From Candidatus Woesearchaeota archaeon (GTDB lineage: Archaea; Nanobdellota; Nanobdellia; Pacearchaeales; GW2011-AR1), in the NCBI GenBank assembly GCA_964601175.1, contig CAZRMJ010000004.1, forward strand, positions 1-63,218: DNA of 63,218 nt. The letters are read 5' to 3'. This document shows positions 5,536-63,216 of the stretch, piece after piece. The stretch's first letter is position 1, and each line of letters opens with the position of its first letter. Under the pieces are notes generated by a model, which made no database searches, was not told where the DNA came from, and saw only the letters and a list, made by a program, of their open reading frames with translations. The position numbers and the translations under genes are program-made.

Positions 5536-6138
5536 TTAAATCTTACCAACCAAATTAATTCCAGGTTTCAAAGTTTTATTTCCTGCTTCCCATTCGACAG
5601 GACAAACTTCTCCACCATGTTCTCTAACATACTTAGCAGCTTGAAGTTTACGCAAAACTTCTTTTACACTACGACCTATTGAGTTATCATGAATATCTGC
5701 ACTCCTAACAATTCCATCAGGATCTATAATGAATGTAGCTCTTAAAGCACGGCCCTCATCTACTCCACTATCTATGTAAACCCCATACATTTTAGAAATT
5801 TTTCCAGAGTTATCAGCGACCATCGGATAACTTATTTTTTTTATTGAAGGAGATTGATCCCACCAAGCCTTATGGACATGTTCGCTATCTGTACTTATGC
5901 TTAATACTTCAGCATTAGCAGCCTTAAAATCTTTATACATATCAGCAAATCTACTAAGTTCAGTAGGACAAACAAAAGTAAAATCTCCTGGATAAAAAGC
6001 AACAACAACCCATTTACCCTTCAAACTACTAAGTCTAAGTTGTTTAAACTTACCTTGATGAAAAGAATGAGAGATAAAATCAGGAGCTTTTCTTCCCACA
6101 AGTGTCCCAAAACCAGAATTTATTAAATTTTGTTGCAT
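5536..6138 (-). CDS. Peroxiredoxin (2-Cys Prx/AhpC type)
   Basis: 200 aa; FYPGDFTFVCPTEL active-site motif and C-terminal GEVCPVEW resolving Cys. Confidence 0.9.
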   Translation of the reverse strand: MQQNLINSGFGTLVGRKAPDFISHSFHQGKFKQLRLSSLKGKWVVVAFYPGDFTFVCPTELSRFADMYKDFKAANAEVLSISTDSEHVHKAWWDQSPSIKKISYPMVADNSGKISKMYGVYIDSGVDEGRALRATFIIDPDGIVRSADIHDNSIGRSVKEVLRKLQAAKYVREHGGEVCPVEWEAGNKTLKPGINLVGKI

Positions 6139-18145: not shown

Positions 18146-18243
18146 ATGGCCCTACGAGGAATACTTCAACTCTTAGTTGAAGTTAGATTACGACTTGTTC
18201 GTAATCGTACGTTCGATTCCTTGAAAATGGCCCTACGAGGAAT
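18146..18243. repeat. 17-nt direct repeat of the tRNA-Arg(TCG) 3' end flanking a 64-nt twin-hairpin cassette
   Basis: atggccctacgaggaat occurs at 18146-18162 and 18227-18243. Between them are H1 ACTTCAACT/AGTTGAAGT (18163-18183) and H2 GATTACGA-CTTGT-TCGTAATC (18186-18206). gttcgattcct (18211-18221) is the inverted copy of the T-loop region at 18238-18248. Confidence 0.85.
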
Positions 18244-18300
18244 CGAACCTCGATCACAGGATCCGAAGTCCCGTATTCTAATCCATTAAACTATAGGGCC
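18228..18300 (-). tRNA. tRNA-Arg (anticodon TCG)
   Basis: Hand-folded 73-nt cloverleaf: acceptor GGCCCTA/TAGGGCC, D loop with GG, anticodon arm CGGGA-CTTCGGA-TCCTG, T arm CGAGG-TTCGATT-CCTCG, discriminator A, no encoded CCA. Confidence 0.85.
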
Positions 18301-43936: not shown

Positions 43937-44449
43937 ATGATAACTGCACATATAACTTCCGAGAAAATACACTCCACTTCTAGTGAAGCATTTAGTTTAT
44001 ATGAGAAATCAAGATTCGGAGAAAAAGTAAGAGACAGAATAGAATATTCATGGATTGAAGCCCTATTTCTAAAAAGTAAATTCAAAATATCTTTACAAAG
44101 AAACAATAAAGAGCTTCAGTTAGAAAATGCAATAAATCTTGCAAAAAAACACGATAAAAGAATAGAAACAAAATTAGCAGTATTTGAAAGTTTAAGAAAC
44201 AAAGGATATGTTGTAAAAACAGCCTTAAAATTTGGTGCAGATTTTAGAATCTATAAAAAAGGATCAAAGCCAGGAGAAGATCACGCCCTATGGTTAGCAT
44301 ATGCTGTAAGGGAATCTGAGCCCCATACATGGCACGATTTTGCAGCAAAAAACAGAGTAGCACATTCCACAAAGAAGAAATTACTAATATGCATAGTAGA
44401 CGACGAAAATGATGTCTTATATTACGAAGTATCTTGGTTGAAGCCTTGA
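43937..44449 (+). CDS. endA: tRNA-splicing endonuclease (short, homotetramer-size subunit)
   Basis: 170 aa; YVVKTALKFGADFRIYKKGSKPGEDHALWLAYAV matches the EndA catalytic-domain pattern (Y..H..K triad context). Confidence 0.8.
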   Translation: MITAHITSEKIHSTSSEAFSLYEKSRFGEKVRDRIEYSWIEALFLKSKFKISLQRNNKELQLENAINLAKKHDKRIETKLAVFESLRNKGYVVKTALKFGADFRIYKKGSKPGEDHALWLAYAVRESEPHTWHDFAAKNRVAHSTKKKLLICIVDDENDVLYYEVSWLKP

Positions 44450-46071: not shown

Positions 46072-46143
46072 GGCTGTGTAGCTTAGTGGTAGAGCGCGAG
46101 TCTCATAAGCTCGAGGTCGGGAGTTCAATTCTCCCCACAGCCA
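46072..46143 (+). tRNA. tRNA-Met (anticodon CAT; elongator-like, but Ile2-type cannot be excluded)
   Basis: 72-nt cloverleaf: GGCTGTG/CACAGCC, D arm GCTT-AGTGGTA-GAGC, anticodon arm CGAGT-CTCATAA-GCTCG, T arm GGGAG-TTCAATT-CTCCC, discriminator A. Confidence 0.85.
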
Positions 46144-46259
46144 TTAGAGAATTGAATGGAGTTCAATTACTTTAACTCGTAAGAGTTTAAGTCACATTTG
46201 TGACTTGTTCACAAATAGTGCTCCCCACAGCCATTAGAGAATTGAATGGAGTTCAATTA
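46131..46259. repeat. 39-nt perfect direct repeat (tRNA-Met 3' end plus 26 nt of trailer) flanking a 51-nt twin-hairpin cassette
   Basis: ctccccacagccattagagaattgaatggagttcaatta occurs at 46131-46169 and 46221-46259. Between the copies are H1 CTTTAACTC-GTAA-GAGTTTAAG (46170-46191) and H2 ATTTGTGA-CTTGT-TCACAAAT (46196-46216). Confidence 0.9.
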
Positions 46260-49186: not shown

Positions 49187-49259
49187 AGCGCGGAACAGGA
49201 TTCGAACCTGCGAATACTCGGGCTGCAGCCGAGCGCGTTAACCACTTCGCCATCCGCGC
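49187..49259 (-). tRNA. tRNA-Cys (anticodon GCA)
   Basis: 73-nt cloverleaf: GCGCGGA/TCCGCGC, anticodon arm CTCGG-CTGCAGC-CCGAG, T arm GCAGG-TTCGAAT-CCTGT, discriminator U as expected for Cys. Confidence 0.85.
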
Positions 49260-49930: not shown

Positions 49931-50045
49931 ATGTTCAAATCCTTAACGACCCCGACAGGATTCCTTCAACTTTTAAAAGTTGAATGGGACTGAAGTGACT
50001 TGTTCACTTCAGGATGTTCAAATCCTTAACGACCCCGACAGGATT
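49931..50045. repeat. 32-nt perfect direct repeat (tRNA-Arg(TCT) 3' end plus 18 nt of trailer) flanking a 51-nt twin-hairpin cassette
   Basis: atgttcaaatccttaacgaccccgacaggatt occurs at 49931-49962 and 50014-50045. Between the copies are H1 TTCAACTTTT/AAAAGTTGAA (49966-49985) and H2 CTGAAGTGA-CTTGT-TCACTTCAG (49990-50012). Confidence 0.9.
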
Positions 50046-50104
50046 TGAACCTGCGGCCTGCTGATTAGAAGTCAGCTGCTCTATCCAGGCTGAGCTACGG
50101 GGTC
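50030..50104 (-). tRNA. tRNA-Arg (anticodon TCT)
   Basis: 75-nt cloverleaf: GACCCCG/CGGGGTC, D arm GCTC-AGCCTGGATA-GAGC, anticodon arm GCTGA-CTTCTAA-TCAGC, T arm GCAGG-TTCAAAT-CCTGT, discriminator G. Confidence 0.85.
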
Positions 50105-53772: not shown

Positions 53773-56700
53773 CTAAAAATTTAATCCATTAACAACATCT
53801 GAAACAGATATCGTCTTTTCATCAAACATATCATAAGCTCCACTAAATAAATTTGAATCAACTAATTCTTTTTCAGAAACAAAAAGAATTCTGCCATTGT
53901 TTACAGATCCAACTCTTTGCTCACTTTGTCCAAAATCGATATAGACCCCATTTCCTAAAACAAAAACAAAGGTCTTTTTACCATCAAGATAAAAATAATT
54001 TCTAGAAGAGCTAGAGTAATTTTTAAAAGACAAACTTTTAGTCTGAGGAAGATTAGCATTATTTGATGCTGTAGAACTAGAATCGGCCACGTTAGCAACA
54101 GATTTAATCGAAACAGCGTTGTTAGAAACAGATTTGGCAAAAACATTAGAATAAAGTTTAGCCCTCAATAAAAGAACGCTAGCTTTGTCCGAATTCCAAA
54201 ATGCCTTATCCATTAAAGAATTTATTTTAATTAATAATCCATTAAAGCTAGAAGAATCTGCACTATCTATTGAGCCTTGAAGATCATTTATCTCTGAAGC
54301 AATACTAGTAGGACTAGAATATTTTTGAGAATTTAAGTTATCTTGTTGAACTTTAGTAATTTCACTTAAAGTCTCATTTTTTAATCCAGCATTAGAATCA
54401 CTTATAGCATTTTGAACACTATTCTTATCCAACCAACACTTCAATCTATCACTTCCACAAATTCCAACTTGAACGAATCTAGAAGGATCTGTGGCACTTC
54501 CAGGATTATCTGTAGAACATATTCTTACAATACCCCTATTATATATTGAAGGATTAAGAGCTTCTTCTCCAGCACTTTGTAAATTAGGATTAAGAAGCGA
54601 AGTTGGACTTAAGCTTCCAGATACACATTCAGTTTCTGTAGTTATATCAGTTCTAGCTAATTCATCTGAAACAATTTTATCACTGACATAATTAACTGCA
54701 AAGCTACTAGAGACTTCTTTAAATCCACATTCTTCTTTATCATTTATTCTAACGCACAATTGCTTATACCCTTTAGGAGCAGTAAAGTCTTTGCTTTCAG
54801 TAGCGTATTGCCCTTTAGAGATAAATCCAGTAGAAACTACAACTACTGGAGATGTAGCATATTGCGAATTAGAAGGAGGATCTTTCAAGTAAACGCTATA
54901 TGAAACACCCCTATCATTTCCTGCAAATATGTGATAAAACACCTTATACTGAGAAGTAGCAGGGAAAGTAGCATCTGTAAAGTCTATCGAACTATACCAA
55001 GCATGGAATTGAGGAGGCGAATCAGCTTGAACAAGAGTTTCAAAAGTATTAGGGACCTTAGCAGAAATAAATGCTCTACAAAGTTCAGTTCCTGCTTCTT
55101 CAGTACTTCTTATTTTAAATGCATCAAATGAATTAGATGCATAACTTTGTGTAAAGTATTCTGCAGAGTCCTGGGCGTTCTGCCAACTACTTTGAACCGT
55201 CAAATATTCTCCTCCACCTCTAACGCTCTTCTGTCCTCCAGTATAAGCAGTTTCAACAAGCTTAGGAACAAGAGTCTTAGCCAAAGGTGCTGCTTGTCTC
55301 CAGAAAAATTCACAAAGATAAACTGAACTAATTTGATCACAAATTCCAACATACTGACCGGTATCTATTGACTCTTGTAAGCACTGTTGATGAGATTTCA
55401 AAATAGAAAGATATCCATCAACTCCAGCTTTAATTCCGGTCAAACAAACAGGAACTACAATTCCATCATTTATGTTAGGCAAACAAAGTAATGCGCTTCC
55501 AACTATTCCAGATTGAACAACATCTGAAACATAATATTCTCCTCCAAAGTTACATCTAGATACAGGACATATTACAGGGTCACAAACGTTAAACAATATT
55601 TTACATTCTTCAGGACTCATATAATCTTGGCACTGGCTTCCAGGCAAAAGAGAAGCAGAATCTCCTACATTTAGAGTGTTAGAACCAATTCTAACATTCT
55701 TTTTACCATATTGTTGAGCAGCATCTTGCAAGGCCTTAACTGCATCATTAACAAGCTTCTTACTTTCAGATTCACTTAATCCAGGGAAATTAGAATAAGA
55801 CTGTCCAGTATAAGCATTAAATTGAACGCATTCATCATCTCCATAATTTGGAGCATTAAAGTCAACTCTTTTATTACCCATTATATTACAAACAAAGAAG
55901 TTTGAAGGTTTTCCATTATCTTCGTAAGATTTAGTGCCTCCAAAAATAGGCAAAGCCTGAGAAGTAGCAGCGTAAAATCCCCTATTCAAATCAAATGGAA
56001 CTATCGCAGGCATTCCCTTGTACGGCTCAGTTTCAAAGTACTTAACTACATTTTCTCCTGGAGAAAATTGATTGTTATACCTTCCGGAGCCAACTTCATT
56101 AAATACGCCAGGAAGGTTCTTTAAAGCATTATTAGAAGCAAGATTAACTTCTGAAGATATTACCTTATGATCATTACCAGTTAATGTATAAACCTTATCT
56201 GAAACGTATTGATCTCCTTGTTTCTTCAAGGTAACCAAATAATTATTTCCATCATCTGCCTTGATAATCTGAGCATAAGCTCCATTGTCAATACTAACTC
56301 CAGAAGATGTACTAAAGGAATTTTGATTTATCAAAGAACTAACTGTCGATCCATAATAATTTCCAGGTCTACTTGAAGATATAGAATAAACTTGAGCCCC
56401 GTTATAATTTTTCAAAGTATTTTGATAATTCAAGTTATCACCTATAGTTTTACCCAAAGAATCTAATTCGGAAGAAGATCTTAACTTGCCTTGAGTGCTA
56501 GTCTGAGGATCATTAACAACTTTGCAATTAAAGTAAACATCTCTCAATTCACTATATGAATAACTAGTAGCATTAAGTTCAGAAGGTAAAAGAGATCCGA
56601 CACTAGAATAACCTATTCCAGAGCTTTTAATTCCAAGATTAACATTACTACATTCACTTCTTATTTTATTGATTAATTCAGTTCTGGCAGTAACATCATC

Positions 56701-58983
56701 AAAAGAAGTTCCAGCAAAAACACCATCTCTACTTTGGAATGAATTTCTTTTTTCTATATCTTGAGTAATCCTATTAGTATCTTCTATAGCTTTTTGTCTA
56801 GCAGAGACATCACTTGCAATCTTTTGAGAGTTTGCATTATAACAAGCAGTTAATGAAGTGTAATTATGAGCATTCACAGCGTTTTGACAGAAGTTTGTCC
56901 ATCCATTTTCTCCAGACATAGCACCTCTTCTAGCAAGAGCCCCTCCACTCAATCCAGTAAAGAAATTCTTAACTGTAAGAACTCCAGCAGTAGCAAAACA
57001 AGCAGCATTAAGATTAGTAACTACTCCATTAAGAGTTTTAGAAATAGACTCAAATTTCTGAATAGTTTTATTCAAATTTTCTATTTTCTTATTAGCCTTA
57101 GCAGGAGTCAGTTCTATAGCTCTTTTTTCTATACCTATTCCAACAGTAAAGTTAGTAATTTCTCCAGATCTAGTTACTGGAGATATCCTTACCTTATAAT
57201 AACTCTGAGCATCAATTTTAGAAACTTTAATTATTTGACCACATGCTTTAACAGTATTCAATAGCCTAACATTTCCATTAAAGTCATTTTTCCTATCTTC
57301 TCCAGTGCATTTAGCAGATATTTCTACAGTTTGAGAATCTTTTATTGAAGTCAATGACAAAGTTCCAAAAGAGAAATCAAAATTACCTCCTTGTTCGACG
57401 GTCTTTTCTTCCCTTCCCCAAGAGATAGTTGCACTTGATTTTTTGGAAGCACCATTTACATCTAAAAGCCTTATCAAGTGATATCCATCATCCGATTGAA
57501 CGACAGTTCCAGAAATAGAAGAATCAACAGAATAAATATTGTTTAAAGCATTTGTGAAATCTACTGCACTACTTCCATCCGGATAAAGATCTAAATATTT
57601 TTCAATTAATCTTATAGCTTCAGTATTCTTTCCATACTTAAGATTAAGATTAATTGCATTACTTAGTGCAAAGTCCCCATAAGTTTTTCCAAGTTCTTTC
57701 TTTTCATCACCATAAGAGTCTGCTATAGCCTCATAATCTTGAGTCGCATTTCTCAAATAAGATTCATAATCTCCATAATTGGCATCTTGTAAAACATTAG
57801 ATGAAATAGGCCTAACAAAACCAGATAGAACTATTGAACCATCATTTAGTTTATAGAATACCCCAGATTCATTTCTAATAACTTCCAAAACGGAATATTC
57901 TTTACTTTTATCAACTGAAAGATCTTTATTGATCTTCCAAACTCTTTCTCCAGAACTTAAAGAAATATCTGAAGAATTCAAGAAGATTTTCTGATTACCG
58001 CAGCTTATATCAATACTACCACTAACAGAATCTCCATAAACTTTTCTAACGGTACATTTATTATTCAAAAATCTAGATCCACCATATAAGTCAAGAATAT
58101 CATCATCAACTCTCAACCTAGCAATAAGAGATGGAGAAATAAAGTCAGTATAACTAAATTGCAAAGCAGTCTGGCAATAACTTCCGGGCAAATAAACTGG
58201 AGTAGGTTGAACTTGGTTCTTTCTCAAAGTCAATTCAGAATATTTTCTATCCCCTGAATAAATTTCAAGACCTAAAGTGTTATTAGAGTCCACTTCTGAA
58301 ACTCTAACAGACATTTTTCCATTAAACAATGTTTGTTTGTTCTTAACGATGTTCCATTCAGCATCATTAGTTTCTTTTAACAACAACTCAGTAGCTCCTA
58401 TTCCTACAGAATTTCCAGAATAATAGTCCACGCTAGCACTTAAGGTGAAGTTGAAAAAATTAGGAATGGTTTTCTCATCAGGATTCCTCTTCAAAACAAC
58501 TACAACATAACCAATATTACTTTGTAGAGGGGTTCCCAACAAACTATTTGTAGTCCTTAATGCAGCGTTAGCTGGATGAAACCCAACTCCTGCAACATAA
58601 TCTGGATAACGTCCACTAAATCTAATATTTCTAATTTGTTTAATATCTATAATTGGGTTAATTTGTAATAAATCCAATTGACAAAATACAGGAACATTCT
58701 GCTCAGCAAGCAAATCGCTTCTAACAACTGAAGGCTGACAACCAACAGGAGAAACCTGTATCAATATATCTTGACTAGAAGTACAAGAGTCTCTGTTAGA
58801 TAAAATAGGCCAGTAAGTATTAGCATTAGATCCATAATAACTGGAAAAACTACTTCCGTAACTTGTAAAACTAGCAGTCCTAGTTAATCCATTACCCAGA
58901 AAATTAGGATCTGAAGTAACAACCTGAGCACTAACAAACCCAATAAACAAAACAAAAGCAAAAGCAAGAATTAATTTATTCAT
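53773..58983 (-). CDS. Giant secreted protein (1736 aa), Sec signal peptide, central Cys-rich module, no recognisable domain
   Basis: Uninterrupted 5.2-kb ORF with N-terminus MNKLILAFAFVLFIGFVSA|QVV. It is S/N/G/T-rich and has a Cys cluster around CQDYMSPEECKILFNVCDPVICPVSRC. The ATGA overlap links it to the upstream 609-aa gene. Confidence 0.7.
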   Translation of the reverse strand: MNKLILAFAFVLFIGFVSAQVVTSDPNFLGNGLTRTASFTSYGSSFSSYYGSNANTYWPILSNRDSCTSSQDILIQVSPVGCQPSVVRSDLLAEQNVPVFCQLDLLQINPIIDIKQIRNIRFSGRYPDYVAGVGFHPANAALRTTNSLLGTPLQSNIGYVVVVLKRNPDEKTIPNFFNFTLSASVDYYSGNSVGIGATELLLKETNDAEWNIVKNKQTLFNGKMSVRVSEVDSNNTLGLEIYSGDRKYSELTLRKNQVQPTPVYLPGSYCQTALQFSYTDFISPSLIARLRVDDDILDLYGGSRFLNNKCTVRKVYGDSVSGSIDISCGNQKIFLNSSDISLSSGERVWKINKDLSVDKSKEYSVLEVIRNESGVFYKLNDGSIVLSGFVRPISSNVLQDANYGDYESYLRNATQDYEAIADSYGDEKKELGKTYGDFALSNAINLNLKYGKNTEAIRLIEKYLDLYPDGSSAVDFTNALNNIYSVDSSISGTVVQSDDGYHLIRLLDVNGASKKSSATISWGREEKTVEQGGNFDFSFGTLSLTSIKDSQTVEISAKCTGEDRKNDFNGNVRLLNTVKACGQIIKVSKIDAQSYYKVRISPVTRSGEITNFTVGIGIEKRAIELTPAKANKKIENLNKTIQKFESISKTLNGVVTNLNAACFATAGVLTVKNFFTGLSGGALARRGAMSGENGWTNFCQNAVNAHNYTSLTACYNANSQKIASDVSARQKAIEDTNRITQDIEKRNSFQSRDGVFAGTSFDDVTARTELINKIRSECSNVNLGIKSSGIGYSSVGSLLPSELNATSYSYSELRDVYFNCKVVNDPQTSTQGKLRSSSELDSLGKTIGDNLNYQNTLKNYNGAQVYSISSSRPGNYYGSTVSSLINQNSFSTSSGVSIDNGAYAQIIKADDGNNYLVTLKKQGDQYVSDKVYTLTGNDHKVISSEVNLASNNALKNLPGVFNEVGSGRYNNQFSPGENVVKYFETEPYKGMPAIVPFDLNRGFYAATSQALPIFGGTKSYEDNGKPSNFFVCNIMGNKRVDFNAPNYGDDECVQFNAYTGQSYSNFPGLSESESKKLVNDAVKALQDAAQQYGKKNVRIGSNTLNVGDSASLLPGSQCQDYMSPEECKILFNVCDPVICPVSRCNFGGEYYVSDVVQSGIVGSALLCLPNINDGIVVPVCLTGIKAGVDGYLSILKSHQQCLQESIDTGQYVGICDQISSVYLCEFFWRQAAPLAKTLVPKLVETAYTGGQKSVRGGGEYLTVQSSWQNAQDSAEYFTQSYASNSFDAFKIRSTEEAGTELCRAFISAKVPNTFETLVQADSPPQFHAWYSSIDFTDATFPATSQYKVFYHIFAGNDRGVSYSVYLKDPPSNSQYATSPVVVVSTGFISKGQYATESKDFTAPKGYKQLCVRINDKEECGFKEVSSSFAVNYVSDKIVSDELARTDITTETECVSGSLSPTSLLNPNLQSAGEEALNPSIYNRGIVRICSTDNPGSATDPSRFVQVGICGSDRLKCWLDKNSVQNAISDSNAGLKNETLSEITKVQQDNLNSQKYSSPTSIASEINDLQGSIDSADSSSFNGLLIKINSLMDKAFWNSDKASVLLLRAKLYSNVFAKSVSNNAVSIKSVANVADSSSTASNNANLPQTKSLSFKNYSSSSRNYFYLDGKKTFVFVLGNGVYIDFGQSEQRVGSVNNGRILFVSEKELVDSNLFSGAYDMFDEKTISVSDVVNGLNF

Positions 58984-60809
58984 TGAAAGTCCACCTCCAA
59001 TCCAATACTATTGAAAACTTCATAATTGTATTGTAATTGCTCCAATGAACTAGGCTTAGGAAGTTCACTAGCATGAATTATCAAATTGCCATTAGAAAGT
59101 TCGCTATCAAGCAGATAATATTCAGTGAGTTTACCTCCTCCAATTAAAGCATAATCTATCTTTGTTGAAGGGATATCTACATTAACACACTTCTCAGTTT
59201 TAGCACCTAAGAAGCCAGCAATTCCACCTTTGCTAACTTGAACACATTCAGTTTTAGTAGTAGATGGTATAACAATACTAGAATTTCCATAAATGTAAAC
59301 CTCTATATCATAAAGACCCTCTTTGAGCTTCACACTAGAACTATCAGGGATAATTGCATTAGATGAATATCCGTCAGTGCCTATAAAGTGGACAATCGCA
59401 TTACTTTGAACCTTATTTCCAATCATTACTTGAACATTTAGATTATGTTCTTTCTGCAAAACAAGCTCTGCAGAGCTTTGAGAATTAGAAGAGAATAATA
59501 TTTTAGAGTCTGCATAACCATCTGCAGAAGCTATAAGATATCCATTAACACAAGCAGGAACTTTAGTATCAACTCTTCCTGAAGAAGAAGTTTGCCCGAT
59601 ATTACATAAACTATCAAAACAATTATAGCTCAAGTTAACAGATAAAGGATTAAGAGATGAATCATAAGCATTTACTGTAAGATCATTTTCAGCAAAAGAG
59701 CAAACATCAACTTCCTCATCAGCATTAGCATAAGTAAGATTCAAAGAATTTACAAGATTATTATCTATATTTACTATAACTGGAAATTGGAAATTATCAA
59801 TGCCATCTCCAACTTGTACTAAAACTGGAAATCTAAGGTCATAAACAAAATGATAAGGAACATAACAAAATCCCATAATCCCCATTCCTTCTTGAGTTCC
59901 TACAGGTTCAGCAACCATTAAAGCTTGAGAAGCTGGAGTAATCTCAATTTTACTTGGAAAAGATTCAGGCAAGTAAATAAAGTTAGCACCATTATTGACC
60001 CTAATATTTTGGTTGAAATATTTATCTCCAGACCCATCTACCTTTATATTACCTATATTTGCTTGAAGACCATCTTTTATTTCCTTAACTACATCTTGTG
60101 TCTTCCATATTTTTGGAGAACATTGTATTTCGACACCATCAACTGGAGCATAAGATTGTAAAACGTCTAAAGCATAATTTTCCAAAAACAAACTACTTCT
60201 TTCATTATTATATATGGAAACAGCTTCCCCGTATAATGATCCAAGCTTGCTATCTAATTTAACATCATGAGTTCTCTTAACTGCTGTATCGTCACCAAAA
60301 CCAGTAGAAAGGGAAGATTTAACTGAAACTGAAACTGAATTATCTGAGATCTTTACAGTAGCATCAGCCGAAGATTTGTCTATAGAAAATCCTTTAGCAT
60401 AAAAATCTGAAAAGTCACAATCTCCAATTCTTGAAGATACAAATGAACCAAGGTCTTTCTCCATATCAGAAATAGAAGGAACATCATTGATAACTAAATT
60501 ATTTCCCGAAATTCCATACCAATAAGGAACCCTAAGTCCTAGAAAATTAAGGTTAGAAGAAAAAGGATTAAAATCACTAGCAGAAGCGGTTTCCTCTACA
60601 TTCAATCTACCACCTTGAGCTTGAAGTAATTTAATTCCGTTAGATAATTCCTGAGAGATACACTCGGAGTATCTATCATAAACAGGTACAAGTGAAGCAG
60701 GGATATTGCTTCCAAAAATGCTACTCCTAAAAAAGAAAAATAAAGCTATGGCTGCAACAATTATTATTGCAAAAATCACGAAACCAGTTACCTGACCTCT
60801 TCTAATCAT
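58980..60809 (-). CDS. 609-aa extracellular protein with class III (type IV pilin-like) signal peptide
   Basis: N-terminus MIRRGQVTGFVIFAIIIVAAIALFFFF has the basic-Gly-Gln cleavage-type motif followed by a hydrophobic helix. The remainder is beta-rich with no known domain. Confidence 0.65.
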   Translation of the reverse strand: MIRRGQVTGFVIFAIIIVAAIALFFFFRSSIFGSNIPASLVPVYDRYSECISQELSNGIKLLQAQGGRLNVEETASASDFNPFSSNLNFLGLRVPYWYGISGNNLVINDVPSISDMEKDLGSFVSSRIGDCDFSDFYAKGFSIDKSSADATVKISDNSVSVSVKSSLSTGFGDDTAVKRTHDVKLDSKLGSLYGEAVSIYNNERSSLFLENYALDVLQSYAPVDGVEIQCSPKIWKTQDVVKEIKDGLQANIGNIKVDGSGDKYFNQNIRVNNGANFIYLPESFPSKIEITPASQALMVAEPVGTQEGMGIMGFCYVPYHFVYDLRFPVLVQVGDGIDNFQFPVIVNIDNNLVNSLNLTYANADEEVDVCSFAENDLTVNAYDSSLNPLSVNLSYNCFDSLCNIGQTSSSGRVDTKVPACVNGYLIASADGYADSKILFSSNSQSSAELVLQKEHNLNVQVMIGNKVQSNAIVHFIGTDGYSSNAIIPDSSSVKLKEGLYDIEVYIYGNSSIVIPSTTKTECVQVSKGGIAGFLGAKTEKCVNVDIPSTKIDYALIGGGKLTEYYLLDSELSNGNLIIHASELPKPSSLEQLQYNYEVFNSIGLEVDFQ

Positions 60810-61056: not shown

Positions 61057-61127
61057 TGGCCCCACCAAGAATCGAACTTGGGCCTCGTCCACGTCAAAGA
61101 CATGTTCTACCATTAGACTATGGGGCC
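61057..61127 (-). tRNA. tRNA-Val (anticodon GAC)
   Basis: 71-nt cloverleaf: GGCCCCA/TGGGGCC, anticodon arm TGTCT-TTGACGT-GGACG (two G.U pairs), T arm CCAAG-TTCGATT-CTTGG, discriminator A. The D stem has one mismatch. Confidence 0.75.
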
Positions 61128-61194
61128 TTTTCACACTCGGCAGTGAGAAGGTCCACAACGAAGTGAGGAACCTCGCAACAAGAGAGGGTGAAAA
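61128..61194 (-). other. 67-nt stem-closed structured element between the promoter and tRNA-Val +1
   Basis: Minus sense: TTTTCAC..GTGAAAA 7-bp closing stem abutting the tRNA, with internal hairpins CCTC-TCTTGTTGC-GAGG, GGTTC..GGACC and CACT-GCCG-AGTG. Confidence 0.4.
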
Positions 61195-62674: not shown

Positions 62675-63082
62675 GTGATAGGTATGACTAATAAAAAGCA
62701 ACTATCTAAAGAAGGAGAACTAAGGTTTGCATCTGAATTCATAAGAAAAGGATGGAATGTTTTCTTACCCTATGGAGAAGATGGTCCAATAGATTTGCTT
62801 TTAGAAAAAGAGGGTCAATTTAAAAGAATACAGATAAAATCAACATCTCCAATAAATGGTACTATACATTGCAGAATAAAATCTTCTAATAACTGGCAAA
62901 TCAAAAAGTATACAAAAAAAGATATAGATTATTTCGGAATTTATGATTATTCCAATAAAAAAGGATACTTTATACCAATAGAAGAAATGGAAGGATTTGG
63001 AGAAACAATATTAAGAATAGAAAAAACAAAAAACAACCAGTCCAAGGGAGTTAGGCTGGCAGAAAATTATGTTTATTTCTAA
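62675..63082 (+). CDS. PD-(D/E)XK-fold nuclease-like protein
   Basis: 135 aa (GTG start, or ATG at 62684); GELRFASEFIRKGWNVFLPYGEDGPIDLLLEKEGQFKRIQIKST fits a D..(D/E)xK/QxK nuclease core. Confidence 0.5.
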   Translation: MIGMTNKKQLSKEGELRFASEFIRKGWNVFLPYGEDGPIDLLLEKEGQFKRIQIKSTSPINGTIHCRIKSSNNWQIKKYTKKDIDYFGIYDYSNKKGYFIPIEEMEGFGETILRIEKTKNNQSKGVRLAENYVYF

Positions 63083-63093
63083 AAAGAATAGCA

Positions 63094-63101
63094 TTTTTAA
63101 A
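63094..63101 (+). promoter_or_regulatory. TATA box for tRNA-Thr
   Basis: TTTTTAAA; the TTTAAA core (63096) lies 29 nt upstream of tRNA +1 (63125). Confidence 0.5.
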
Positions 63102-63124
63102 CCAAGAATTTCATTAAATTTTAT

Positions 63125-63216
63125 GCCTCTGTAGCTCAACGGTTAGAGCAATAGTTTTGTAAATCCAGAGATTTCAAAACAACTATAGGTTGGGGGTTCG
63201 ATTCCCTCCAGAGGCT
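63125..63216 (+). tRNA. tRNA-Thr (anticodon TGT) with a ~19-nt canonical 37/38 intron
   Basis: GCCTCTG/CAGAGGC acceptor, D arm GCTC-AACGGTTA-GAGC, anticodon stem ATAGT/ACTAT, loop TTTGTA|intron 63162-63180 (aatccagagatttcaaaac)|A, T arm GGGGG-TTCGATT-CCCTC. Confidence 0.8.

Follow-up and report, generated by a model that had tools for sequence, protein, structure and literature searches.

Double-hairpin DNA cassettes between copies of the tRNA 3' end in DPANN archaea, probably inserted at the T-loop

What is a gene-less stretch of about 50 bases, folding into two hairpins, that lies between perfect copies of the tail of a tRNA gene? The case considered here comes from a Candidatus Woesearchaeota archaeon (assembly GCA_964601175.1, contig CAZRMJ010000004.1), and the window, by which we mean the whole stretch of DNA analysed, comprises 63,218 nt. 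A preliminary description had reported an intact tRNA-Met followed by such an insert, and had left side by side the options of a miniature integrative element mobilised in trans, a non-canonical T-loop intron and a small structured RNA. Here we show that the insert belongs to a cassette family associated with tRNA genes, and argue that it is, on balance, probably a non-coding DNA cassette inserted at the T-loop by a trans-acting enzyme, with att-like repeats left behind. The locus is made up as follows.

46072..46143, plus strand: intact tRNA-Met(CAT) (ARAGORN; Rfam RF00005, 74.1 bits)
46131..46169, plus strand: first copy of the direct repeat, spanning tRNA positions 61-73 and the next 26 nt of trailer, 100% identical to the second
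46147..46156, plus strand: T-arm complement GAGAATTGAA, perfect against the T-loop and 3' T-stem at 46124-46133 (inverted-repeat search)
46150..46168, plus strand: third hairpin AATTGAA-tggag-TTCAATT, formed by the T-arm complement and the second GGAGTTCAATT copy (DNA fold)
46169..46218, minus strand: core double-hairpin cassette (covariance model R1, 68.5 bits, E = 8e-14)
46221..46259, plus strand: second copy of the direct repeat, with the same tRNA positions and trailer (repeat search)

All of the local repeats derive from the T-arm and 3' end of tRNA-Met. The 39-nt repeat (46131-46169 = 46221-46259) has a spacing of 90 and an identity of 100%, and the 11-mer GGAGTTCAATT starts at 46120, 46158 and 46248, in both respects as first described; the downstream T-arm complement, present a second time at 46237-46246, had been overlooked. 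The DNA between the repeats is filled by H1 (span 46169-46192, arms 46170-46178/46183-46191) and H2 (span 46196-46216, arms 46196-46203/46209-46216), the latter bearing the invariant GAACAAGTC on its minus strand, and folds with z = -6.2 on the plus and -6.1 on the minus strand. The repeat is not an assembly artefact: in k=31 unitigs from seven independent sequencing runs, the unitigs of every run end 30 nt into the repeat, as k=31 graphs do at a genuine one. An EndA gene encoding a 170-aa single-domain protein lies 1.6 kb upstream of the locus, at 43937-44449.

Recurrence of the arrangement at two tRNA-Arg genes, also part of the preliminary description, was borne out by the covariance model and by exact repeats.

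18146..18300, minus strand: tRNA-Arg(TCG) module, whole (R1, 38.9 bits)
18228-18300, minus strand: its tRNA
18211-18221, minus strand: its T-arm complement
18163-18207, minus strand: its cassette
49931..50104, minus strand: tRNA-Arg(TCT) module, whole (R1, 63.5 bits)
50030-50104, minus strand: its tRNA
50016-50026 and again 49933-49943, minus strand: its T-arm complement
49963-50013, minus strand: its cassette

The repeats measure 17 nt at Arg(TCG) (18146-18162 = 18227-18243) and 32 nt at Arg(TCT) (49931-49962 = 50014-50045), and both begin at tRNA position 58, as against position 61 at Met, so that the repeat does start in the T-loop or 3' T-stem as proposed. R1 detects exactly three cassettes in the window, each no more than 30 nt from a tRNA 3' end and all on the minus strand; because tRNA-Met is encoded on the plus strand and both tRNA-Arg genes on the minus strand, the Met cassette is inverted relative to its own tRNA, which agrees with the initial reading. 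Each of the three tRNAs is complete upstream of its insert (66-74 bits, Rfam) and is followed, 13-16 nt past the T-arm, by a perfect reverse complement of the T-arm of 10-11 nt. The cassettes are not due to chance, since GAACAAGTC occurs three times in the window, always inside a cassette, against 0.39 occurrences expected, and the expectation for the two-hairpin pattern is 0.00. In related strains a fourth cassette follows tRNA-Gln(TTG), about 7 kb past the window. The window's tRNA-Cys carries a duplication of its 5' end.

Copies beyond the window were collected by exact-pattern scans. Of 30 pattern matches in 185,579 species genomes, eight fall in four Pacearchaeota/Woesearchaeota MAGs and each of these adjoins a tRNA. 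Taken over the genome, metagenome and window scans there are about 25 hairpin-forming copies, most of which adjoin a tRNA and all but one of which lie on low-GC contigs, the exception being a GC-rich chance match; so far, then, the family is almost confined to DPANN archaea of the Pacearchaeota/Woesearchaeota type and to low-GC metagenome contigs. It is hosted by at least 13 tRNA isoacceptors. The cassettes of this family measure about 47-51 nt, and inserts overall 45-110 nt. Two pattern scans of the 2.9 million viral contigs of IMG/VR returned no copy of the cassette; the matches there are chance ones within coding sequence, none with an H2 hairpin of more than 3 bp, and a viral origin was accordingly set aside. 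A search of Rfam 15 with the Met locus and one type-B locus (see below) matched the tRNAs alone, both at the gathering score and with E up to 10, anything else scoring far below the gathering threshold, and we found no description of this module in the literature searched.

Both hairpins are conserved as structures. Across the family 92.6% of the stem cells are paired and nine pairs change on both sides, a result matched by 0 of 500 shuffles. Watson-Crick pairs account for 172 of 190 stem cells, with nine A.C and four G.U combinations, the latter all at a terminal pair, and neither strand is favoured; the stems thus look like DNA palindromes. The nine-nucleotide apex of H2, GA-ACAAG-TC, is invariant, and its GAACAAGTC is not derived from tRNA and is constant over at least 13 isoacceptors and many genomes. 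The arms of H1 contain TTCAA/TTGAA, which is T-loop-like.

The junctions fall into discrete classes. Each of the 12 forward-type cassettes runs in the direction of its tRNA, and at 11 of these loci the downstream tRNA copy begins at position 58, whereas with inverted or type-B cassettes it begins at position 61-62. Type B has the same core within a different shell: its units possess 11-nt terminal inverted repeats and no clear duplication, their terminal stem covaries, with G.U pairs in L101, and they also occur ahead of tRNA-Ala and tRNA-Val, in sequence that must be transcribed as part of the leader. The repeats always run past position 73 to a variable right-hand limit, which gives lengths of 16-39 nt. 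At Arg(TCG) and in L021 the downstream copy is succeeded by a T-run, which in L100 and L105 lies a few tens of nucleotides further on, as would fit a displaced original tRNA tail with its terminator. The spacers between tRNA and cassette mostly lack a run of five or more T.

Comparison of syntenic tRNA loci, which had been suggested as a check, revealed empty sites. L025 is collinear with the window from 43.9 to 51.1 kb and its tRNA-Met is empty; relative to the window, both tRNA-Met and tRNA-Cys have been flipped without leaving their positions. At Arg(TCT) the double-hairpin cassette is present in the window and in L032, L042 has this cassette together with another type, and L025 has only that other type. 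At tRNA-Thr/'Tyr' the window's species has no insert, whereas L055 carries one. Insertions may also be stacked. In L074 about 900 nt after tRNA-Ile(TAT) contain at least six copies of the tRNA 3' end, separated by this double-hairpin cassette, by an unrelated inverted cassette type and by a piece of the T-arm of a Lys-type tRNA; serial insertions are found in L070 and L077 as well, and in L072 tRNA-Ser is trailed by the 3' part of another tRNA-Ser allele. A lack of further copies and of empty and filled alleles, which the preliminary description counted among the conditions for a mere fossil duplication, is not what is observed. The empty and filled alleles of any one site were seen between genera only. 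Exact-protein look-ups gave no polymorphism within the window's species, although k=31 unitigs could not reveal a Met allele lacking the insert. The Arg(TCG) cassette is base-identical in seven other assemblies, which also speaks against an assembly artefact.

Cassette similarity tracks neither the tRNA nor the genome. The window's three cassettes are 64-69% identical to one another, so that no transposition has taken place recently within this genome. The one at Met shares 86% identity with that at Leu(TAA) in L036, and the Arg(TCG) cassette of L105 is 94% identical to the Ser(CGA) cassette of L035 and 69% identical to the Arg(TCG) cassette of the window.

Because the same cassette recurs at many DPANN tRNA genes while leaving the tRNA unbroken, we read it as a miniature mobile element. 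The multi-copy family, its occurrence in both orientations, the stacked arrays, the syntenic loci that are empty, filled or differently filled, and the pattern of cassette similarity make a mobile or att-like DNA origin the best supported of the three options first proposed. According to this model, a cassette would enter the tRNA gene on the 3' flank of the T-loop, either by insertion at the DNA level or through site-specific recombination. An insertion would leave an intact tRNA beside its promoter, a second copy of the tRNA 3' end on the far side of the cassette and also an inverted copy of the T-arm, and repeated events could stack cassettes into arrays. The flanking repeats behave like attL and attR in that an intact tRNA is retained and its 3' end recopied beyond the cassette. 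The hairpins, above all the H2 apex GA-ACAAG-TC, are most likely recognised by a trans-acting enzyme that the cassette does not itself encode, for which a tyrosine recombinase or topoisomerase-IB-like enzyme and an HUH single-strand nuclease are candidates; double-strand-break repair following a tRNA-gene-specific nuclease would be an alternative route. That mobility is the cause of the pattern, that the T-loop is the entry point and that such an enzyme exists are points that we infer. More tentatively still, the cassettes may represent a 'micro-integrative' class of gene-less double-hairpin units of about 50 nt, served by a dedicated T-loop-specific trans-acting enzyme (tyrosine-recombinase or topoisomerase-IB-like, HUH, or a homing-type nuclease with repair) with the GAACAAGTC apex as its recognition site, inserted in either orientation, forming integron-like arrays on many tRNA 3' ends and bringing about in-place inversion and allele replacement of DPANN tRNA genes, although we would not expect all of this to hold.

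Several observations sit uneasily with mobility. Ten otherwise unassigned ORFs of the window gave no recombinase, transposase or Cas1 by Pfam, the match among them being a PD-(D/E)XK nuclease (62684-63082); the remaining ORFs of the window were taken to be housekeeping genes on visual inspection only. Ten unassigned ORFs near modules at other loci likewise gave no recombinase, the sole match being a type IB topoisomerase in L035, and neither set of ten contained a Phage_integrase match above threshold. The suggestion of an element mobilised in trans is thus upheld as regards the family and its polymorphism between relatives, but is not matched by a recombinase in the ORFs checked or by polymorphism within the species. 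Old and diverged as the cassettes are, the repeats that flank them show 100% identity, for which a recent re-insertion, gene conversion or selection is needed. Pairing with the 5' acceptor strand is confined in L038 and L042 to the tRNA-proximal copy; the distal one fails to pair, having two acceptor mismatches in L038 and differing from its own tRNA at four positions in L042; a simple model in which attP replaces the 3' end predicts the opposite, barring a decayed distal copy or replacement of the whole allele. An excised double-stranded circle, at 80-90 bp, would moreover be very small. Finally, most forward cassettes have no preceding terminator, which makes their transcription, and with it a function as RNA, a real prospect.

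Should the cassettes prove mobile, few site-specific insertion units known from any prokaryote would be as small, and they would be the first gene-less ones shown to use the T-loop of many isoacceptors. They would also imply an undiscovered recombinase or nuclease in Pacearchaeota/Woesearchaeota that targets a universally conserved feature of tRNA, and could help to explain rearrangement hot spots at tRNA loci of these reduced genomes, where we see tRNA genes inverted in place, partial tRNA copies in stacks and alleles replaced.

Among known systems, tyrosine-recombinase elements integrated at tRNA genes offer a close parallel. Both the T stem-loop and the 3' end are recognised positions of att sites within tRNA genes, and in archaea tRNA-Arg(TCT) is one of the targets used most often (PMC8371274). 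As in our cassettes, the att repeats start in a loop with dyad-symmetric stems and extend through the 3' end and sometimes beyond it, an intact tRNA is regenerated beside the original promoter, and tandem accretion at one tRNA occurs; there is a 5'-half variant (pTN3-like) comparable to the duplication at the window's tRNA-Cys, and integrase-driven inversions are known (PMC8371274). These elements, however, are kilobases long and bring an integrase, whereas the inserts described here are gene-less, are accompanied by an inverted T-arm copy beside each forward cassette, and have no integrase in the cassette of 50 nt or in the ORFs checked in the window and near modules. Furthermore, since one cassette family occupies at least 13 tRNAs, its tRNA-specific part cannot be a fixed attP. 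In form the cassettes recall the double-hairpin and other repetitive hairpin-forming elements of fungal and sponge mitochondria, which are likewise very short, non-coding and multi-copy, consist of one or two abutting hairpins, are present or absent among close relatives, are presumed mobile, and often lie in intergenic regions beside tRNA genes (PMC2800124). The likeness is of form only: those elements belong to eukaryote organelles, bear no sequence relationship to ours and lack strict T-loop targeting, and the Allomyces elements are without target duplications (PMC2800124), while the cassettes are flanked by long tRNA-derived repeats.

No HUH or Y1 enzyme was found among the ORFs checked. 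A further comparison is with the hairpin-dependent single-strand DNA systems, namely miniature elements derived from IS200/IS605 (PATEs), REP/BIME sequences with their RAYT transposases, and rolling-circle Rep origins. These systems resemble our cassettes in that recognition rests on hairpins whose stems vary and covary while a short motif stays constant; their elements can be tens of nucleotides long, are mobilised in trans and insert by a short conserved target motif. Unlike the cassettes, they make no target duplication, and we know of none that targets tRNA T-loops. Invariant-apex hairpins and a junction beside the T-loop TTCR speak for a kinship with IS200/IS605 or REP/RAYT, and the long duplications and the lack of a transposase in the ORFs checked speak against it. 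Clusters of integron attC sites without an integrase have been reported in Archaea, including Nanoarchaeota (PMC9668308). Such arrays, like those seen here, have units bounded by folded imperfect palindromes and are often integrase-less. The arms of H1 (CTTCAAC...GTTGAAG) are loosely like what we take to be the attC core sites, RYYYAAC/GTTRRRY. Typical attC sites, however, measure 57-141 nt, form an R''/L''...L'/R' hairpin, each follow an ORF and are served by an IntI integrase, whereas the cassettes have no ORF, no IntI was seen, H1 is about 20 nt long and the arrays are anchored on the tRNA 3' end.

How do other explanations fare? The cassette could instead be a functional tRNA trailer RNA, co-transcribed with the tRNA and released by RNase Z, in which the T-arm complement and the downstream copy close a three-way junction around H2 and H1; its role might lie in 3' processing or termination, in protein binding as a small RNA, or in tRNA-specific antisense or guide activity. 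We regard this as unlikely, though deserving of serious consideration, and it would amount to a new clade-specific tRNA-trailer RNA family. The common orientation of the 12 forward-type cassettes, mostly without a prior T-run, would suit a transcript, as would the strong covariation of the hairpins with their invariant nine-nucleotide apex, the type-B terminal stem with its G.U pairs, the type-B units in tRNA-Ala and tRNA-Val leaders, and fixation within the species. RNAalifold also predicts a closing stem of 6-7 bp around both hairpins, but this is trivially explained, since each strand of that stem is itself a T-arm copy. A trailer RNA is harder to reconcile with those cassettes that are antisense to the tRNA, namely the one at Met and the type-B units that follow tRNA-Cys in L025 and tRNA-Thr/'Tyr' in L055, with relatives whose syntenic tRNAs have no module or unrelated cassettes, and with arrays of up to six tRNA tails and fragments of other tRNAs. 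The small structured RNA of the preliminary description found no positive support in an Rfam family or in a strand-favouring G.U signature, G.U pairs being nearly absent from the stems. Rather less probable is that no dedicated element exists, and that the structures are by-products of replication slippage, of template switching at the quasi-palindromic T-arm or of ectopic T-arm recombination, with hairpins kept perfect through intra-strand templated repair. Direct and inverted T-arm-derived sequence at every junction, the T-loop-like motif of the H1 arms, the near-pure Watson-Crick stems (as expected of templated copying), the in-place inversion of whole tRNA genes, the tRNA-Ser fragment in L072 and the lack of a mobility enzyme in the ORFs checked would all fit. 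What by-products do not account for is the invariant apex foreign to tRNA, cassettes 86-94% identical at different tRNAs of different MAGs, junctions at two discrete positions instead of scattered ones, and a single core in two different shells.

The att-like appearance of the direct repeats and the popularity of tRNA-Arg(TCT) as an archaeal integration target (PMC8371274) might also suggest the decayed ends of kilobase-sized viruses or plasmids, of which internal deletion or imprecise excision left an att-adjacent arm. This is very improbable, given that all of the roughly 25 copies share short boundaries with tRNA-derived sequence on each side, that none is joined to a long insert or an integrase gene, and that none occurs in the viral contigs. 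Least credible of all is the intron once proposed, in which the 90 nt between the repeats would be a non-canonical T-loop or T-stem intron and the downstream copy the true 3' exon. Non-canonical archaeal tRNA introns do form related short structured inserts at several tRNAs, including in the T-loop, and transfer through att sites has been proposed for them. Such introns and their transposition are documented in Thermoproteales (Sugahara et al., 2012, as cited in PMC8371274). In the present case splicing at equivalent repeat positions would yield an identical mature tRNA, the tRNAs of this clade do have anticodon-loop introns of 17-49 nt, and the EndA gene is close by. The single-domain type of 170 aa is, however, one that we take to be strict for canonical bulge-helix-bulge substrates, and a scan of all equivalent splice-site pairs yielded no bulge-helix-bulge inside the tRNA at Met or Arg(TCG). 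At Arg(TCT) the repeat copies can pair as a weak bulge-helix-bulge-like motif, but this is a self-pairing artefact. An intron that starts with the same sequence as exon 2 would need a self-complementary central 4-bp helix, which is not present; the 5' site would be buried in a perfect 11-bp duplex with the T-arm complement; the downstream copy breaks the acceptor pairing in L038 and L042; and the upstream copy already completes the tRNA. The cassette also occurs inverted and in arrays, and six-copy arrays make no sense as introns. With introns allowed, ARAGORN predicted none in the three cassette-bearing tRNAs.

Other candidates were rejected outright. A cDNA of mature tRNA stopped at m1A58 is ruled out, because the downstream copy continues into genomic trailer and not into CCA. 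Inspection by eye for a C/D-box or H/ACA small RNA, a k-turn or an opposite-strand tRNA-like fold gave no boxes and no cloverleaf, and ARAGORN calls no tRNA there. Classical terminal inverted repeats with a target-site duplication can be drawn at Arg(TCT) but fail at Arg(TCG); in contrast to a classical MITE or DNA transposon, forward cassettes bring no terminal repeats with them, the inverted repeat at their flank coming from the T-arm, and the duplications vary between 16 and 39 nt. In practical terms, repeats of 17-39 nt fragment short-read assemblies at tRNA genes, and the partial tRNA copies may mislead tRNA annotation of DPANN MAGs.

The modules at tRNA-Met, tRNA-Arg(TCG) and tRNA-Arg(TCT) are real and non-random. 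The 39-nt Met repeat of the preliminary description (46131-46169 and 46221-46259) has no mismatch, the three occurrences of GGAGTTCAATT are there as claimed, H1 and H2 lie where they had been placed, and both tRNA-Arg loci are built from the same parts, their repeats (17 and 32 nt) again perfect. Searched with a covariance model of H2 plus H1, the window gives three matches and no more, all on the minus strand, so that the Met cassette is inverted relative to its own tRNA, as had been proposed. All three occurrences of the 9-mer GAACAAGTC in 63 kb are in these cassettes, and the DNA between the Met repeats folds well beyond shuffles on either strand (z about -6). The Met repeat exists in nature: k=31 unitigs of seven runs each stop 30 nt inside it, and the Arg(TCG) module is without differences among seven assemblies.

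One component was absent from the preliminary description. The trailer of each cassette-bearing tRNA contains a perfect reverse complement of the T-arm, 10-11 nt long. Placed 13-16 nt downstream of the T-arm and spanning tRNA positions ~53-63, it is missing from the three tRNAs of the window that have no cassette. The Arg loci run from the tRNA through a spacer, the T-arm complement, H2 and H1 to a copy of positions 58-73, while at Met the inverted cassette has a T-arm copy (positions 50-60) on one side and a copy of positions 61-73 on the other.

Features at tRNA genes in the window and in comparison contigs (L-numbers)
46072-46143: tRNA-Met, intact
46072-46143 and 49187-49259 (L025 2110-2233 and 5883-5955): tRNA-Met and tRNA-Cys, inverted between window and L025
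49250-49262 and 49299-49311, minus strand: 13-nt direct repeat at tRNA-Cys (3 nt of leader plus tRNA positions 1-10)
61128-61194 (L055 ~5870-5945): ~67-nt unit abutting the 5' end of tRNA-Val (61057-61127, minus strand)
62684-63216 (counterpart locus L176 10590-10740): PD-(D/E)XK nuclease gene and tRNA
L176 17280-17435: fourth cassette, after tRNA-Gln(TTG), in a close strain

The window is core chromosome of an archaeon. It has a G+C content of 32% and encodes EndA, RNase Z, TBP, TFB, an ATP-dependent DNA ligase, a RadA-like protein and many aminoacyl-tRNA synthetases, with TTTAAA-type boxes, the tRNA promoters, ending ~24 nt upstream of tRNA position 1. Pacearchaeota and Woesearchaeota MAG contigs are collinear with it at 50-98% protein identity, and the 674-kb contig Ga0172278_1397 (JGI 3300013121) represents a very close strain.

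Syntenic loci differ among these relatives. Over 43.9-51.1 kb of the window L025 is collinear; its tRNA-Met has a 49-nt intron, absent from the window copy, and no 3' module, and tRNA-Met and tRNA-Cys both stand in opposite orientation, in place, in the two otherwise collinear genomes. Cassette sets at Arg(TCT) differ across four genomes, and the tRNA at the window's right end, which has no module in the window's species, has a type B cassette (described below) in its L055 counterpart. Judged by sequence identity, cassette similarity tracks neither tRNA nor genome: the window's three cassettes are 64-69% similar to one another, the Met cassette shares 86% identity with the Leu(TAA) cassette of L036, and the Arg(TCG) cassette of L105 is 94% identical to that at Ser(CGA) in L035 but only 69% to the window's own Arg(TCG) cassette. 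At some loci the distal tRNA copy is unlike the local tRNA, that of L042 resembling tRNA-Arg(TCT) of another lineage. The locus differences and the cassette similarities point to a dynamic process that acts on DNA.

The stems themselves speak to the same question. Across the family 92.6% of H1 and H2 cells are paired, both sides have changed in nine pairs, and none of 500 shuffles and no slid register comes close. Watson-Crick pairs account for 172 of 190 stem cells; only four are G.U, all at one terminal pair, and nine are A.C, which would be G.U if read on the other strand. Both strands fold equally well. We infer that the stems are constrained as DNA, whether as a palindrome or as a single-strand hairpin, and not as RNA.

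Cassettes fall into distinct arrangements. Type A (forward) occurs at 12 distinct loci, always in the orientation of the tRNA, and its downstream tRNA copy begins at position 58 in all but one; inverted cassettes are followed by a copy beginning at position 61-62. Type B has an H2-H1 core identical in kind within a ~110-nt shell with covarying 11-nt terminal inverted repeats, and is placed antisense against the tRNA 3' end or sense against the 5' end. Cassettes of other, unrelated kinds are likewise found between tRNA-tail copies, in L042, L025, L077 and L074. In L074 a ~900-nt array with at least six tail copies follows tRNA-Ile(TAT) and combines forward cassettes of the double-hairpin family, inverted cassettes of another type and a T-arm fragment of a Lys-type tRNA.

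By exact-pattern scans the family is confined, almost exclusively, to one clade, Pacearchaeota/Woesearchaeota. Among 185,579 species genomes there were 30 matches, eight of them in four MAGs of this clade, every one beside a tRNA; the remainder were without the H2 palindrome. With further copies from a JGI metagenome scan and the window's own three, ~25 copies form the H2 hairpin, on low-GC contigs except for one GC-rich chance match, and the majority adjoin a tRNA: Arg(TCT), Arg(TCG), Ser(CGA), Ile(TAT), Lys(CTT), Gly(CCC), Leu(TAA), Leu(TAG), Met, Cys, Thr/'Tyr', Ala and Gln. The Gln(TTG) cassette, found in two close strains ~7 kb past the window's right end, brings the count to four of nine tRNAs in ~73 kb. 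In L176 its T-arm complement (11 nt) is perfect, its 19-nt repeat begins at position 58 and its H1 is degenerate; the exact-pattern scans did not pick it up. The pattern scans gave no copies in viral contigs, and no Rfam family matches the cassette.

On balance, the cassette is probably a non-coding double-hairpin element mobilised in trans by a putative enzyme. The flanking repeats have a left border fixed in the T-loop, always include the tRNA 3' end and vary at the right border, like the att repeats of tRNA-integrating elements; the T stem-loop and 3' end are recognised att sublocations in tRNA genes, and in archaea Arg(TCT) is a preferred target (PMC8371274). T-runs tend to come after the distal copy and not after the tRNA itself, which would fit displacement of the original tail along with its terminator. 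The two junction classes (58 versus 61-62) bracket A58-A59-T60 and may show where the two strands are cut, 57/58 on one and 60/61 to 61/62 on the other. The classical att model is not matched in every respect: the insert is ~50 nt and gene-less, an inverted T-arm copy accompanies it, the ORFs checked yielded no integrase, and in L038 and L042 the 5' acceptor strand matches the proximal copy, not the distal one.

That the cassette is instead a co-transcribed trailer RNA is rather unlikely; its orientation and the missing terminators favour such an RNA, but inverted copies, presence/absence differences and arrays count against it. Passive template switching or ectopic T-arm recombination, with no dedicated element involved, seems improbable, since the invariant apex is not tRNA-derived and copies at unrelated tRNAs are 86-94% identical. 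We would be surprised if the cassettes were decayed ends of large integrated elements, of which no scan returned a long version. The T-loop intron raised in the preliminary description is scarcely credible: the tRNAs of the Met and Arg(TCG) loci contain no bulge-helix-bulge, and the distal copies of L038 and L042 break acceptor pairing.

In its way of working the trans-mobilised element is closest to att-flanked integrative elements, from which it is set apart by integrase and size, and in form to mitochondrial double-hairpin and repetitive hairpin-forming elements, whose mobility is likewise merely inferred (PMC2800124). Hairpin-dependent single-strand systems and integron attC arrays, the latter reported in Nanoarchaeota (PMC9668308), offer a mechanistic lead only. 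We found no description of a double-hairpin tRNA module in the literature, and these hitherto undescribed cassettes are best filed under tRNA-targeting mobile DNA, as a new variant.

Several further observations concern tRNA loci. Assemblies L165, L166, L167 and L169 (three JGI, one Logan) break at nearly one point (window ~18218-18222) inside tRNA-Arg(TCG), just 3' of the anticodon loop, which suggests a second genomic copy with the 5' half of this tRNA. In L072 (175-345), 12 nt separate a complete tRNA-Ser(CGA) from the 3' part, variable arm to 3' end, of another tRNA-Ser(CGA) allele, and cassettes come next, as if the allele had been replaced and the old 3' part left over. Window 53773-60809, compared with L171 1-8317, is a strain-variable island adjoining tRNA-Val, in which the genes for two predicted proteins of very large size (1736 and 609 aa, with no Pfam match on record; we guess surface proteins) give way in the L171 strain to other genes, including one for a beta-helix/NosD-like protein, between conserved flanks. 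Directly upstream of tRNA-Val, the ~67-nt unit, bounded by 11-nt inverted repeats TTTTCACACTC / GAGGGTGAAAA and kept at the same position in L055, resembles a type B shell minus the H2-H1 core; it is probably a transcribed structured leader, because the nearest TATA-like box lies ~75 nt upstream. tRNA-Cys shows the mirror image of the cassette loci, its 13-nt repeat flanking 36 nt in which GTGAATT-GA-AATTCAC forms a hairpin. The distance of the TATA-like box suits the upstream partial copy, so that the true tRNA would be transcribed with a ~49-nt leader.

Two enzyme genes lie near tRNAs or cassettes. A type IB topoisomerase gene in L035 (3536-4579; Pfam Topoisom_I 4e-15, weak Phage_integrase match) is 2.4 kb from a cassette; such enzymes have catalytic chemistry in common with tyrosine recombinases, and the gene may simply be a housekeeping one. 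The free-standing PD-(D/E)XK nuclease gene (Pfam PDDEXK_5, 1e-21) lies directly upstream of an intron-containing tRNA, called undetermined or Tyr-GTA by ARAGORN, and its product matches PDB 2OST (E = 3e-4), the tRNA-intron homing endonuclease I-Ssp6803I. The close strains L175 and L176 lack the gene and have at its site a different, intron-less tRNA-Thr(TGT) allele between identical flanks, so that nuclease and protected tRNA allele look like a homing-type cassette replacing a tRNA gene.
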